A stretch of 64,000 bases of DNA from Amphiscolops sp. MND2022 (Eukaryota): contig OZ076409.1 of assembly GCA_964187785.1 (NCBI GenBank), positions 28,646,001 through 28,710,000 on the forward strand, given 5' to 3'. Below are positions 10,891-30,130 of this stretch, in pieces (position 1 is the stretch's first letter; every line of letters begins with the position of its first letter). The translations under genes and the position numbers were made by a program. The notes beneath the pieces were generated by a model that was not told where the DNA came from, ran no database searches, and worked only from the letters and a program-made list of their open reading frames with translations.

Positions 10891-11906
10891 ATAAAAATTT
10901 CCAACGAGAATCAATTTTCTAACAGTAGTCAGCATTTTGCTGTTGGAAAATCACCAAAATTATGCTAAATTTGATGCTTCGTCGGAAAAATTTTTACTTT
11001 GGTCGTAAAAATTGGCACATATATTTGAAAACGTTTATCTTATCCTTTCTAAAAAAATCTTCGGACTGAAATCGTTTTTAAAAAGTTGCGGAAGTAATAA
11101 TTCACAATCGTAATAATAAAACAGATTTCTCCAATAATTTACAACATTGATCAAAACCGGCACGTCATCAAATTATTGCTGACCATGATTTAAAATGAAA
11201 AGACAAATCTCGGACATCTGTTTGTAGTAAACAGTAATGACCTTTTGCATTTCTATTTTTTGCAGGCGAGCGAAGGTCTGTTCCAACGATTGAGCACCCC
11301 ATTTAGTATACACTCGTTGTCTTGTCAAAAAATGCCCCACACTTAACAACAAGACGGGAAGGTCTACAGTCGGCGCTATACCTCGGTCTAAAAGTGGAAA
11401 ATTTTCAAAATATTCTCAGGGCGTTTTTATGAGAAACTCGGAAAGCAGTTTCGAAACACTTTAAGGGTGCCTTTCGTACACGGAAAACGCTTCAGAATTC
11501 AGATATAGAGTGCTGAGACAAATACGAGTGTTTTTATCTTACGCCTCCTCATCCTTAGTAAAACGTAATAAGTAGTATAGGAAATCCCGAGACGGGCCAC
11601 AAAAACCCCAAAAATTAAAAGTACTCAAAACCATTGATTTTAAGGTATTTTTCCAAAACAGATCATTAAAATCAGGCGTTTTCCAATACGGGCCACAAAA
11701 ACCCCAAAAATTAAAAGTACTCAAAACCATTGATTTTAAGGACTTTTTAGAAGACAAATCATCAAAAATAGTGTTTTTACCATGAAGCAAAATTCACTAA
11801 CCTCTATAGTTTAATGCCAACGTTGCAACCAGCGTTCATGTACAACCAACGTTAATGTACAACCAGCATTAATGCACAACCAGCAACAATGAAAAATAAC
11901 TAATAA

Positions 11907-12332
11907 ATGAACTATTTATCATTCAAAGAATTTGTTGAAAAATACGGACTAAAAAACGAAGCAACTTCCAATGTAAAAATAGAAGAAATACTTGATAGGC
12001 TTGGTGCCTCCGGCGAAATAAATACAGTGTGTGGAATATACATGAGAGATGATAAGTTTAACACTACCAGTGGTATAGTTAACTTACATCCCTCAGTGGG
12101 AACACATTGGGTTATGTTTACAAATCAAAATTATTTTGATTCATATGGATGCCCACCCCCAACTAATATACTTAATCATATTAAAAATGGTATTTATTCA
12201 GAATATCAAATTCAGACCAACGACAGTTATTGCGCGGCGTATTGTTTATACACACTGTATCTCACAAATAAAATTGGGTTCAAAAATGCAGTACTAAATT
12301 TATACTACCAAACTTTCAAACTTAATAAATGA
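11907..12332 (+). CDS. Adenain-like cysteine protease (copy 1)
   Basis: GTHWV, YFDSYG.PPP, Q.Q..DSYCAAYC catalytic motifs. Confidence 0.85.
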   Translation: MNYLSFKEFVEKYGLKNEATSNVKIEEILDRLGASGEINTVCGIYMRDDKFNTTSGIVNLHPSVGTHWVMFTNQNYFDSYGCPPPTNILNHIKNGIYSEYQIQTNDSYCAAYCLYTLYLTNKIGFKNAVLNLYYQTFKLNK

Positions 12333-12617
12333 AGAAAATTAATAATTATTCAACTCAATATAAAATTATCTCGCGCAGCTTCGCGCTAGCTCCCGCGACA
12401 GCTAACGCACAAAATTTCACGCACAGCTCCACAGAACAGCTTCACAATCAAAATCATGGGAAAAATACAACAAACCTTCTTAAGAAAACATTATCAAAAG
12501 ATAGACAAGAATTTATAAATAGCATTTCCGCTAGTGGATTCAAACAATTTAATCTATAATGCGGAGCTCCGCGAAGCTGTGTGCGAAGCTGAGAAAAAAG
12601 GATTTTTTTCCTAATAA

Positions 12618-13964
12618 ATGGATCTATCAAGCTTCGTAACATATGATAAAAAAGAATCTCTTCTTTTAAGTATTGCAAAATCTAATCAAGAAATTGTTGA
12701 AAATACTCATTCTAAACCACAAGAAACTCTAGAATTTAAAATGACTAAACAAAAAGAATCTTTCTCATTCGATGTTCCTCTCATTTTAAATGAAAAATGG
12801 ATGATGGGAGTAACAAGTTTAGAAGTATACAACACTGTATATAACATTACTGAAAAGAATAACAAACTACAAATTATTCTGAATGATCAACAACTCAAAG
12901 AACTTAAACTTGATAGTGGATTAATACTGTTTGTTGAAGATTTATACGTTACTTATTTTGGTAAACCTTACACACTTAGTGAGTATAATGAATTTGTAGA
13001 AAAGGCCAATAAACTTATAACCAATAGTTATTCTAAAAAGAATAAACTTACTAGAATAGATTTTGATTATTTAACAAAGATAGTCAAATCACTCAATGAA
13101 ATATACAACAATCGCCTCAACCAGGAAACAATAAACCAAAAAAAATTAAAACAAGAGCGAAGCCTCGCAAAACTAAATCGAGAAAGAATAATTAAAGAAT
13201 ACAAAGATCACCTAAAACAGGTAAAAATAAATTGGGAAGAAATAAACTGGGAGGAAATAATTTTGGAGGATGCGAAAGCTACCGCGACAGCTAACGCGAC
13301 AGCTACCGCGACAGCTAACGCAGCTTCGCAAACAACCCAAGAAAATCACGAAGATGACGAAGATGGCGAAGTAAACCGCGTATCTTCGCAAGTAAACCAA
13401 ACAAACCAAATAAATCAAATAAATTTACCCCCTTTTGACATTGTTGAAAACGATTTCTTTGAAATTTATCTAACACCAGGAGTTTATGAACTAGTTGATA
13501 TAAATAATGCTATTAAACAAAAAATTAATTAAAGTGATTATGATTTCAAATTTGATTTAATACCTGACACAATATCAATGAAATCAGTTTTAACAACCTC
13601 AAACAATATTCAATTTAACTCCAAACTTAACACAGTCTTGGGCTTTACACACACAGTGTACCCACCCGGAACGCATGAATCAGAAAAACCAGTCATGATA
13701 ACAACCACCGATAAAGTTCATCTGAAGTGCGACTGTGTAGATGGTTCAATTGTTAATGGTATACGAGAACAAATTTTATTTTCTTTCAATTTAAGCGCAC
13801 CTCCCGGATACAAAATTATAAAAGAACCCACAACTGTTTTGTACAAATCAATTAACAAAACACGACTGGACACCATTCAATTTTTCCTTGAGGACTCTAA
13901 TCATGATTCAGTTGATTTCAACGGGGAGACACTCACCTTCACAATTCAAATTATCAAAATATGA
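12618..13964 (+). pseudogene. Minor capsid/penton protein (copy 1), split by an in-frame TAA
   Basis: The 304-aa and 128-aa ORFs are in the same frame, separated by one stop at 13530-13532. Confidence 0.75.
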
Positions 13965-13993
13965 TAGGATTTAATACAATTTTTTTCTAATAA

Positions 13994-28184: not shown

Positions 28185-28296
28185 TTATTTATAATAAATT
28201 TATGAATTTAATAGCAACATATTTTTCAATAGTATATTTTTCAATTATTAGTGTTAATTTTTATTTTATTTTTTATGTTAAAATTGAATAAATTAA

Positions 28297-28989
28297 TTAT
28301 AAAAAATTGTGTGGTTTAAGTGGTATTGTTGGTGGTGTGTGCGAAGCTACTTGTGATTTTGTATGCGAAGCTGTGTGCGATAGCTCCCGCGAAGCTACGC
28401 GTGATTTTGTGTGAATTTCCTGTGAAGCTGCGTTAGCTGTCGCGTTAGCTGTCGCCTGATAATTTTCAAATTGAGTCACAAATCGATGATATTCTTTTTC
28501 ATCTATACAGTTGTCTTTTAGGCTAGCGACATAAAGTTGTCTAAAGTCGTCAAGAGTCTTCTGAATAATAGTGTACTTAAGTTTATAATTTTGCTCCTTT
28601 TTCTTCAAATAACTAGAACAAATCTTAACAAGGATACCAGTTGTACAACCAACTCCTGCAGTGATTGGAACAACTATAATACCCACACCAGTAATACTTA
28701 GTGAGATTGATGCTGAAGTTGTTCCAATCACTATAATGCCATCGAGGGAGTTAATTAGGTTATTTATTAGCTTGTATTTGTTGTATTTCTGTTTGTATTT
28801 ATTTTCTTCCATTTCATAATATTTCATCATTAGACTAATGTTTTGAATAGAATTATTGAAACTATTTACTTTTTGTAATTCGCTTTGCAAGTGTTTATTT
28901 ATCATTGATTCTACATCATATGGTGCTGGGGGAGAGGCCGTTGCGTTAGCTGTCGCGGGGGTCAGGGAGGGATAGAGTTTTTGTTCCAT
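28297..28989 (-). CDS. Putative membrane-active protein with a hydrophobic Gly-rich hairpin
   Basis: LYPSL near the N-terminus, coiled coil, SASISLSITGVGIIVVPITAGVG. Confidence 0.7.
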   Translation of the reverse strand: MEQKLYPSLTPATANATASPPAPYDVESMINKHLQSELQKVNSFNNSIQNISLMMKYYEMEENKYKQKYNKYKLINNLINSLDGIIVIGTTSASISLSITGVGIIVVPITAGVGCTTGILVKICSSYLKKKEQNYKLKYTIIQKTLDDFRQLYVASLKDNCIDEKEYHRFVTQFENYQATANATANAASQEIHTKSRVASRELSHTASHTKSQVASHTPPTIPLKPHNFL

Positions 28990-28992
28990 TTA

Positions 28993-29784
28993 TTAATCAT
29001 ATAAAATGAAATTTATTTCCGTTGGTGTTAATTTCATTCTGTGTTTCATATCAACAAGGTCTTTATAGGAATCTTTTTTCAATGAATCCAGAATTGATTG
29101 TCTGGTAGAATATTCTAAATCAGACAGATAATATTCACCATCTGAAGTAGGTATTGTTTTTCCATACTTTTCCTTCAAATAGGATTCGCTAAAAGTTAGA
29201 TAATTTGCAAAAGCTTGATCTTTATTGGGAAAGGAATCGAACAAACCTTTGTCATAAAGCAGTTGAATTATGTTGTTAGTTATAGTAATTTTATTTTGAT
29301 CTAGGCTATTAAAAATTTTATTAATTTCATCTTCATTTAAAATCATTCCAGCTTGACCCACCTGACTCATAAACTTTAAATTACGGACTGTTAACATTTC
29401 AAAACTATTGTTGTGTATTAAATTTAGTACCTCATTTACTAAAGCAGTTCTTTGTTCGGCGAAAGATTTTTTCATATTTTGTTCTAATTTATTTATGGTT
29501 TTTGAAAGGTCTGAAAACTGGGAATAAATATCATTCATCAACTTTGTGTTTAATAAAACATCTTGAATTTCCTGTGGGTCTAGTGTTTGTTCTAGCATTT
29601 TTTCTTCTACTTGATTTTCTATGTCATTTTCAAAATCGCGTTGCAAATCTTCTTTTAATTTGGAATGGGTTATTTGGGCTAATTTTTCTTGGCTTTTTAT
29701 CATATCTTTTAGCTCCTGATATTCCCTCAGTTTTAGCTGTTCACTAGAATAACCAAACTTATGAAGAGACGGAGTTTCATACAT
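28993..29784 (-). CDS. Polinton helical protein of unknown function (263 aa)
   Basis: Long ORF with a TAAATG start, co-oriented with pPolB. Confidence 0.65.
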   Translation of the reverse strand: MYETPSLHKFGYSSEQLKLREYQELKDMIKSQEKLAQITHSKLKEDLQRDFENDIENQVEEKMLEQTLDPQEIQDVLLNTKLMNDIYSQFSDLSKTINKLEQNMKKSFAEQRTALVNEVLNLIHNNSFEMLTVRNLKFMSQVGQAGMILNEDEINKIFNSLDQNKITITNNIIQLLYDKGLFDSFPNKDQAFANYLTFSESYLKEKYGKTIPTSDGEYYLSDLEYSTRQSILDSLKKDSYKDLVDMKHRMKLTPTEINFILYD

Positions 29785-30130
29785 TTATTAAGATGAAAAA
29801 GTTGAAAAATACGCGAAGCTACGCAAAACCCATAGGCATGCTCATTTCCATTGGTATATGCATTGACATGCCTATGGTAAACTCAAAGCCCGTCGGGAGT
29901 CCGTTCCACTAAGAGTTTCCACAGCAGGGATTATCCTTTTTAAGAACTGTGCCATTGGTGATTATTCTCCCATAACATGTAAGTTGTAACAAAGACTGGG
30001 GGACGTTGGATAGAAGTGAACCCCAAACACTCCGGCCGAAGCCTTAACTTTAGTCAATGCTATAACCACTAAGCTATGGGAGACAAAGATGTGTTAGTTT
30101 TAGTTTTATAAGAATAACGTATGCGCCGGC

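Follow-up and report, generated by a model that had tools for sequence, protein, structure and literature searches.

Gene starts of an animal Polinton lineage resemble poxvirus late promoters and may point to a helper virus

Introduction

The published late initiator of vaccinia virus is TAAAT(G/A), and vaccinia late promoters also have a conserved T 10 nt upstream of the TAAAT, amid less conserved Ts. The promoter motifs of virophages follow those of their helper (PMC10945749), and Polinton-like viruses are present in the occlusion bodies of entomopoxviruses (PMC11296320). Animal Polintons may be autonomous viruses, transposons or satellites of larger viruses, and virions or a life cycle have been established for few of them. 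A position-matched promoter of poxvirus type before every gene is directly testable, and would allow thousands of elements to be classified cheaply from genome sequence alone. The animal Maverick/Polinton papers searched describe no promoter motif (the word 'promoter' is absent), and no earlier report of a poxvirus-type late promoter in Polintons was found in the literature searched. An earlier note on the window (the whole stretch of 64,000 nucleotides analysed here) had proposed that the genes of a Polinton within it start in the manner of poxvirus late genes, and that a helper virus activates them.

Structure and gene content of the element

The element (15192..30596; 15,405 bp, 33% G+C), recognized by its terminal inverted repeats and gene set, is a Polinton/Maverick (Polintoviricetes). 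The left repeat (15192..15428, + strand) is 237 nt long and begins with AGTAGT; it is 99% complementary to the right repeat (30360..30596, − strand), and a 6-bp target-site duplication flanks the pair (15186..15191 and 30597..30602, + strand). The other features of Polintoviricetes found are an rve integrase, an A32-like ATPase and a double jelly-roll capsid. The element lacks an RNA polymerase of its own, with no Pfam match of this kind among its ORFs. At least 100 copies with capsid proteins 93–100% identical are present in the host genome (G000); in viral_contigs, neither the capsid protein by itself nor a close alignment as query retrieved a relative. Part of the host flank and the left end of the Polinton occur a second time as a tandem duplicate (10763..14383, + strand; 3621 bp, 3 mismatches), in which the starts at 11907, 12329 and 12618 are repeats and which also contains the start at 13994.

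On the + strand, the first gene encodes 141 aa (15528..15953; ATAAATG at 15524–15530) and is, to judge from family motifs, presumably a maturation cysteine protease. It is followed by a 76-aa ORF (15950..16180, +; ATAAATG at 15946–15952) that is retained in other copies, and by a gene (16239..17585, +) with a T7 run and ATAAATG at its start, the product of which we take to be a minor capsid protein. This gene is broken by an in-frame stop (17151–17153) that is present in both duplicates. The candidate protease and minor capsid ORFs are conserved in other Polintons, and neither has a Pfam or PDB match. A putative core-protein gene is represented twice: its start and 5' part (13994..14383, +; T7 run and ATAAATG) are ended by the duplication junction, and its main copy (17615..18163, +) has no start codon near 17615. 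Next is a 430-aa ORF conserved among Polintons (18190..19482, +; ATAAATG).

Two A32-like ATPases lie on the − strand, the first a packaging ATPase (19471..20514; PF04665, E 1e-4; T6 run and ATAAATG) and the second (20823..22049; PF04665, E 8e-8; T7 run and ATAAATG) diverging from a retroviral-type integrase (22073..22939, +; PF00665, E 6e-11; ATAAATG), the starts at 22049 and 22073 being 23 nt apart. The double jelly-roll major capsid protein (22987..24240, +; PF21738, E 1e-22; T6 run and ATAAATG) precedes a protein-primed family B polymerase (pPolB; 24345..28184, −; ATAAATG). The latter itself has no direct match to PF03175 or to any other Pfam or PDB entry, and is assigned through a relative in the host genome that is 47% identical and matches PF03175 at E 1e-13. 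ATAAATG occurs at two more sites, 24332 and 28067, each the beginning of a short frame that runs antisense to the polymerase. The − strand also carries a 230-aa ORF with a hydrophobic segment (28297..28989; ATAAATG) and a 263-aa ORF (28993..29784; T5 run and ATAAATG).

Start contexts in the window and in host genes

All 12 starts listed in the earlier note do read ATAAATG, and the T5–7 runs it described are present before six of them (16239, 22987, 13994, 20514, 22049 and 29784), ending 8–11 nt before the ATG. Small corrections to it are that 13994 sits in the tandem duplicate, with no start codon at the matching place in the main copy, and that the gene at 16239 is interrupted. Among the other ATGs of the element, TAA directly precedes 22 of 512 and ATAA 7 of 512; for ATGs elsewhere in the window, the count with TAA is 27 of 1423. 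The element is 67% A+T and the regions upstream of its starts 68–90%, so AT bias, or a translation-start context of the host, has to be considered. Against this stands the null derived from local 10-nt composition, under which the chance of 12 out of 12 is about 5e-12, and the scarcity of TAAAT-type starts in other AT-rich pPolB elements (12/145). Nor is the motif equally frequent at host starts, an outcome that the earlier note had named as grounds for refutation: it was found in none of 39 non-redundant, non-Polinton long ORFs from host genome stretches and the window (four core histones included; the first ATG was used, and some of these are not true starts), and in none of 12 HSP70 starts. 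As far as this host sample (39 + 12 starts) reaches, a Kozak or AT-bias effect is refuted, and we regard it as scarcely credible.

A two-part promoter across subfamilies

Eighteen copies from the same genome were compared, spanning four divergent Polinton subfamilies with different gene orders, two polymerase types and capsid proteins about 42% identical between subfamilies. TAAAT is at the ATG or no more than 5 nt from it in 223 of 243 homology-supported starts (196 with TAAATG, and 27 with TAAAT followed by an ATG within 5 nt). In 72 non-redundant contexts, TAAAT is followed by G in 63, by A in 8 and by T in 1 (G or A in 71/72), and T peaks at −10, where it occurs in 73% (9/12 in the window alone). 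Runs of four or more Ts occur in 29 of these contexts versus 9.2 in shuffles, and none of 2000 shuffles reached 29. A T at −10 accompanies 41 of 65 start-linked TAAAT sites versus 171 of 475 other TAAAT sites (p 4e-5), and the −10 T profile is flat in the 145 starts of other AT-rich pPolB elements. The likeness to poxvirus late promoters is closer than the earlier note could show: TAAAT(G/A) in any frame and a T peak at exactly −10 recur across these distant subfamilies. What is fixed is TAAAT(G/A), rather than a stop codon, an AATAAA or a Kozak context. By its architecture, each gene of this Polinton lineage appears to have a separate two-part promoter like those of poxvirus late genes.

The motif could also act after transcription, with the TAA stop coupling the translation of neighbours along long RNAs, or with AATAAA, close against the next start, serving the preceding gene as its poly(A) signal. 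AATAAA is present at 9 of the 12 window starts, an upstream stop lies within 4 nt in 8 of the 72 non-redundant starts, and B-type elements have nearly all of their genes on one strand. However, the TAA ends no upstream ORF of more than 2 codons at any of the 12 window starts, 64 of the 72 starts are uncoupled (46 of these keep the T at −10), and many of the 27 starts with TAAAT 0–5 nt from the ATG are out of frame. Moreover, TAAAT is preceded by T or G in 22/72, and the motif is also found at first and divergent genes, which have nothing upstream to terminate. Because uncoupled, out-of-frame, first and divergent starts keep the motif, in-frame stop coupling and an upstream poly(A) signal were both rejected, and a post-transcriptional role is improbable.

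Between copies, the motif persists despite altered N-termini and intergenic DNA, and divergent starts in a sister subfamily are 14 nt apart (compared with 23 nt in the window element). The persistence of the motif bears on the idea that the promoters are a functionless relic of past helper dependence, with which the lack of any helper trace in the genome would agree. Copies are 80–98% alike and subfamilies about 42%, yet the motif has been kept or re-formed where its surroundings changed, which implies current selection and makes a relic very improbable.

A zinc-ribbon protein and transcription by the host

All 9 B-type or mosaic copies examined have an ORF for a zinc-ribbon protein, and it is absent from 9 of the 18 copies, including the one in the window. 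The N-terminal A2L-type zinc ribbon (PF08792) matches 7 of 38 family members at E 0.02–0.16, and the TFIIB ribbon matches equally; the family gives the best PF08792 match in the whole host genome, at 22.0 bits, which is below the cut-off of 22.9. The C-terminal Pox_VLTF3 domain (PF04947) had no match in this ORF. With a low-confidence model, Foldseek ranked poxvirus VLTF-3 2–4, over ~200 columns (E 0.03–0.04, TM about 0.2); overall the likeness has E 0.03–0.13 with models of pLDDT 45–49, and is under every threshold. Nothing useful on this protein came from the PDB, by sequence or by fold, or from PHROGs or the ESM Atlas. The predicted protein of the sister subfamilies weakly resembles the poxvirus late factor VLTF-3, at a level that is not significant.

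Such a factor raises the possibility that the promoter is real but is used by host Pol II in the nucleus, under the direction of a Polinton-encoded VLTF-3/TFIIB-like zinc-ribbon protein (in trans where the gene is absent). The poxvirus likeness would then come from common descent of the factor and not from a present helper. Viruses thought to rely on the host polymerase can likewise have VLTF-3, and mriyaviruses, which have VLTF2/3 without an RNA polymerase, are thought to replicate in the nucleus (PMC11253617). The presence of the ORF in every B-type or mosaic copy, its weak matches to both the TFIIB and A2L ribbons, and a high copy number with zero helper trace would suit this explanation. 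It fits poorly with the half of the copies, the window element included, that are without the gene. The zinc-ribbon gene itself starts with TAAATG, so nothing 'early' is left in the element to begin a cascade. The Polinton coding strands are also rich in AATAAA (141 vs 116 expected; 44 of 50 ORFs carry one), and nuclear 3' processing should cut them. Finally, a T at −3 without a leader makes a poor start for a Pol II mRNA. Host transcription of this kind is the main alternative, though the less likely one; if it is true, the use of a poxvirus-type promoter by host Pol II would also be new. Among host ORFs, 28/35 are without AATAAA, a weak depletion (11 vs 16, z −1.4) in ORFs that are more GC-rich. 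Splice-donor motifs are depleted in no set, and T5NT is somewhat low in Polinton ORFs (20 vs 28.5, z −1.9).

Dependence on a helper virus

The best reading, to which we give a probability of roughly 0.55, is a virophage-like dependence on the RNA polymerase of a poxvirus-like helper. On this reading the observed architecture, a TAAAT(G/A) initiator that overlaps the start codon and a T-rich stretch with its centre 10 nt upstream, is the promoter. By analogy with vaccinia, transcription would begin inside the AAA, with polymerase slippage supplying a 5' poly(A) leader, and as a result the T at −3 would never be part of the mRNA. Lacking an RNA polymerase and any class of genes with a different promoter, the element would have all its genes, those for replication too, switched on together by the post-replicative machinery of a large, poxvirus-like DNA virus that infects the host. 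It would then replicate, be packaged and integrate anew, behaving as a virophage-like satellite in the way that mavirus does towards CroV. The zinc-ribbon protein of the sister subfamilies may, on weak support, have been captured as a VLTF-3-like factor, which would tune the helper machinery or compete for it. Helper dependence, if true, would be a sign that invertebrates have poxvirus-like viruses yet to be discovered and that animal genomes contain a virophage-like layer.

In the host genome, the matches to PF00562 are just three RNA polymerase B-subunit genes, all intron-split, with no large-virus RNA polymerase among them, and the sole capping candidate is one intron-split cap methyltransferase. 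VLTF-3 (PF04947), large-virus capsid (PF04451) and Pox_Rif (PF03340) gave no match there, in searches run without a positive control. These searches cover integrated genes; free viruses would be absent from the assembly. The T7-N3-AATAAATGG pattern was also searched in IMG/VR viral_contigs, and among the 80 matches listed none has more than 2 TAAATG starts, which leaves no helper candidate among them. Also weighing against a helper, frequent germline integration (at least 100 copies with near-identical capsid proteins) is easier to explain without a lytic one, and ordinary tissue samples of corals show polintovirus expression (PMC11131425). TAAA-type initiators are also found in yeast virus-like elements, so the motif does not single out Poxviridae. 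The interpretation in the earlier note is partly supported: the promoter likeness holds up, and helper dependence is an inference that we share.

Other Polintons

Outside this genome lineage, the late-type pattern is present in just 2 of 44 pPolB loci, and most animal Polinton relatives have different start contexts. One locus on an independent contig (L084) has T at −10 in only 2/6 starts. A separate Polinton clade (L056, L057, L071, L099, L102) shows a layout of the vaccinia intermediate type, with an A-run at −22..−15 followed by TAAA. A topology uniting the TAAATG-bearing polymerases of the window, L055, L095 and L084 in one clade was rejected (p-AU 0.008, from a quick 24-row tree with the group chosen after an earlier tree was inspected), and replication modules have been exchanged between elements. 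Tentatively, Polintons might widely be satellites of poxvirus-like viruses in animals, with promoter classes that mirror the helper cascade, late in the window lineage and independently in L084, and intermediate in the clade of five, some having captured a VLTF-3-like factor. If so, promoter type would predict unknown invertebrate poxvirus-like viruses, and Polintons would be the animal counterpart of protist provirophages.

Comparison with known systems

Vaccinia late promoters share with these starts the TAAAT over the start codon, the following G or A and the T peak at −10, but here the architecture, known from sequence, occurs in a 15-kb integrated element without RNA polymerase, and before all genes, including those for replication. 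Mavirus and EMALE04 of Cafeteria are likewise proviruses with an integrase and pPolB, whose genes carry the late promoter motif of a large DNA virus (PMC10945749). They differ in having a protist host, the TCTA motif of CroV and a virophage capsid, and it is for them alone that the helper is known and reactivation has been shown. Entomopoxvirus-associated Polinton-like viruses (Barth et al. 2024, PMC11296320) are also small capsid-encoding elements proposed as parasites of poxviruses in animals; in contrast, their capsids are highly divergent, they are about 12 kb in size, and the association was inferred from co-sequencing. Neither 'promoter' nor 'TAAAT' occurs in the main text of that paper. 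The yeast cytoplasmic elements pGKL1/2 are pPolB elements as well, with a TAAAN initiator and 5' poly(A) leaders made by slippage, but have their own RNA polymerase and capping enzyme, lack a capsid and do not integrate. With the animal Maverick/Polintons (adintoviruses, Polintoviricetes), the element shares its terminal inverted repeats, 6-bp target-site duplication, pPolB, rve integrase, A32 ATPase and double jelly-roll capsid.

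The Polinton and its host genome

Positions 15192-30596 of the window form one complete Polinton/Maverick element (15,405 bp), which has inverted repeats of 237 nt and is flanked by a target-site duplication of 6 bp. Its products include an rve integrase, a pair of A32-like ATPases, a capsid protein of the double jelly-roll type and a 1279-aa polymerase (47% identity to a PF03175-positive relative), and it has seven further genes; an RNA polymerase gene is absent, as stated in the earlier note. A tandem duplicate of the element's left end, with 0.8 kb of adjoining DNA, lies at 10763-14383 (3 mismatches in 3621 bp), the two units of host flank and element left end spanning 10763-18004; this 3621-bp duplication could be genuine or an assembly feature. 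This copy has two defective genes: one contains an in-frame stop at 17151-17153, the other lacks its start near 17615. Tandem units of 11 nt lie between the ATPase genes (20530-20820), 17-nt units are subterminal (11826-11896, 30098-30352), and 24/72-nt units fall within a 430-aa ORF (18939-19230). A GC-rich 12-nt unit, CGCGACAGCTAA-like, is dispersed through the ORFs (several sites, 12382-28456), differs among copies and contributes short Ala/Thr-rich inserts. Elsewhere in the window (31871-32866, 38376-40250, 49248-53013, 33857-34630) are a 38-nt minisatellite, a hAT transposase and LINE-type ORFs, none with a TAAATG start.

The host genome (1.07 Gb), regarded here as that of an animal, has many GPCRs and tandem histone clusters, among them very large arrays of a 3.63-kb four-core-histone repeat (contigs C67, C33, C4 and others), with genes all on the same strand. 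Capsid proteins are 93-100% identical in all 100 scored matches of 2853 candidates; the family is young and abundant. Seventeen further copies from this genome were compared, giving 18 with the window element. Six belong to the same subfamily; four come from a subfamily whose capsids are 80-85% identical, and two of those four are mosaics that carry another polymerase module. The remaining seven represent a family (B-type) with capsid identity of ~42%, which differs in gene order, has its genes on one strand and carries two polymerase types. At loci L177-L178 and L181-L182 there are mosaics whose capsid and polymerase modules come from different subfamilies, and at L047-L049 one Polinton is inserted in, or adjoins, a fragment of another subfamily. 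HNH-like endonuclease ORFs are present in several subfamilies, and a U-box/DUF4116 gene in one.

Gene starts

The claim that every gene of the window Polinton opens at ATAAATG holds for all 12 listed starts, six of them with a T5-7 run shortly upstream, while TAA precedes 22 of the element's 512 other ATGs; under a null from local 10-nt composition, 12/12 has a probability of ~5e-12. Host genes, as had also been claimed, do not start this way in the samples compared: none of 12 HSP70 starts does, nor any of 39 non-redundant long non-Polinton ORFs, for which the first ATG after a stop was taken, so that not every one is a true start. Short frames antisense to the polymerase (24332-24637 and 28067-28291, both +) also open at ATAAATG and are present again in other copies; they may be antisense starts or chance.

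With a lower limit of 60 aa, the 18 copies yield 306 ORFs; setting aside 48 internal fragments and 15 ORFs that have no homologue leaves 243. TAAATG forms the start in 196, TAAAT lies 0-5 nt ahead of the ATG in 27, and 2 have a longer A-run; the 18 with neither pattern mostly look like fragments of broken genes. Among 72 non-redundant contexts, TAAAT is followed by G in 63, A in 8 and T in 1, and preceded by A in 50, T in 17 and G in 5. Together with the survey of 243 starts, these counts define the invariant as TAAAT(G/A), in any frame, and it is retained where copies vary at the N-terminus or have lost intergenic DNA. TAAAT-type starts are a real feature of these Polintons. Two other explanations were rejected: TAAAT serves as the stop of an upstream gene in 0/12 cases in the window and 8/72 overall, and AATAAA is not required, since the preceding base is not always A.

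Across the 72 contexts, counted from the T of TAAAT, the share of T is highest at -10 (73%), with 65% at -11, 62% at -9 and -7, and 26-34% at -13 and -12. Vaccinia late promoters have their upstream T at this same distance. Runs of T4+ within -16..-4 occur in 29/72 contexts against 9.2 in shuffles (0/2000 reach 29). In a set of four elements, T is found at -10 of 41/65 start-linked TAAAT sites (some starts supply two) versus 171/475 other TAAAT sites (p 4e-5), and in the window Polinton at 9/12 starts. Other AT-rich pPolB elements (145 starts) have no -10 peak, being flat at 37-52%.

Other elements and start layouts

Outside this genome, 44 pPolB loci, each with at least 4 ORFs, were compared, and only L084 and L095 have TAAATG at half or more of their starts. 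Among outside loci, L095 (3/4) comes closest to the Polinton polymerases of the host genome; L084, a 9-kb IMG/VR contig with TAAATG at 6/6 starts (7/7 with an open-ended ORF), does not, and the -10 T is not evident in it (2/6). L084 is an unrelated Polinton with a protease-like-integrase-chromodomain fusion. A single clade for all TAAATG-bearing polymerases is rejected (p-AU 0.008), which suggests that such starts arose more than once.

A separate, well-supported clade (L056, L057, L071, L099 and L102), picked after its contexts had been viewed, has TAAA within 9 nt of 48/60 starts, TAAA(A) standing directly ahead of the ATG. An A4+ run at -22..-15 accompanies 26/48 of these start-linked sites; shuffles give 5.2, and TAAA sites elsewhere have it in 48/1157 cases (p 3e-21). 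In the host-genome Polinton contexts the count is 5/72. This layout agrees with the published description of vaccinia intermediate promoters, TAAA with an A-rich stretch 15-19 nt upstream and then T; another account places a core rich in A and T 12 bp away from TAAA (PMC12917281). TATA lies within 12 nt of 81/145 starts of other pPolB elements (L078 outside the count), and TATA-rich contexts (L070, L072, L074, L076-L079, L081-L083, L085, L086, L088, L089, L092) are possibly a further promoter class.

Transcription and a possible helper

Divergent starts are 23 nt apart in the window Polinton and 14 nt in a sister subfamily. AATAAA occurs 141 times on Polinton coding strands versus 116 expected from synonymous shuffling (present in 44/50 ORFs), and 11 times versus 16 in host ORFs (none in 28/35); as the host depletion is weak and GC content unequal (31% in Polinton ORFs, 45% in host ORFs), this contrast is supporting evidence only. 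Both are signs, at sequence level, against ordinary Pol II genes.

The main rival, host Pol II directed by a factor encoded in the element itself, is possible rather than likely. It is favoured by the high Polinton copy number, by mriyaviruses, described as having VLTF2/3 together with no polymerase (PMC11253617), and by coral polintoviruses expressed in ordinary samples (PMC11131425). VLTF3 has already been reported in some polintoviruses (PMC11131425; bioRxiv 2026.06.19.733378). A zinc-ribbon ORF of 160-205 aa, itself starting at TAAATG, is present in 9/9 B-type or mosaic copies (L178:1337-1867 (+), L052:2749-3279 (+) and seven others) and absent from the window Polinton and the other 8 copies. 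It has sub-threshold matches to both A2L and TFIIB ribbons, is the top PF08792 match anywhere in the host genome, scoring 22.0 bits where the cut-off is 22.9, and does not match PF04947. Two low-confidence models of it retrieve poxvirus VLTF-3 from BFVD at ranks 2, 3, 6 and 2, 3, 4 (E 0.03-0.13, TM ~0.2). It is a candidate VLTF-3-like transcription factor, a lead rather than an assignment. In a distant relative, P0384, the zinc ribbon is fused with a small upstream ORF.

In the host genome no large-virus RNA polymerase was found (the only three B-subunit genes are intron-split), nor a viral capping enzyme (only one cap methyltransferase), and VLTF-3, large-virus capsid and Pox_Rif gave zero matches in searches without a positive control. 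Since a free virus is not expected in an assembly, these missing genes neither support nor refute a helper. The two-part motif of late geometry ahead of nearly every gene is under selection. On the preferred reading, to which we give slightly better than even odds (about 0.55), transcription would initiate inside the AAA of TAAAT, yielding a poly(A) leader, and a poxvirus-like helper would activate all Polinton genes together in a virophage-like cycle. Post-transcriptional, compositional and relic readings share what remains beside this and the Pol II reading.

Protist virophages already provide examples of promoters that match those of the helper (PMC10945749), and a study whose main text has no promoter analysis reports Polinton-like viruses together with entomopoxviruses (PMC11296320). 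No report of TAAAT-type promoters in Polintons was found in the full-text literature covered, which takes in few subscription journals and includes PMC8502044 and bioRxiv 2023.08.22.554363, 2024.03.23.586382 and 2026.07.28.741278. In vaccinia late promoters, TAAAT(G/A) overlaps the start site (PMC5294985), and slippage produces the 5' poly(A) leader (PMC6211774); the Polinton motif has the same two-part geometry, ahead of nearly every gene.
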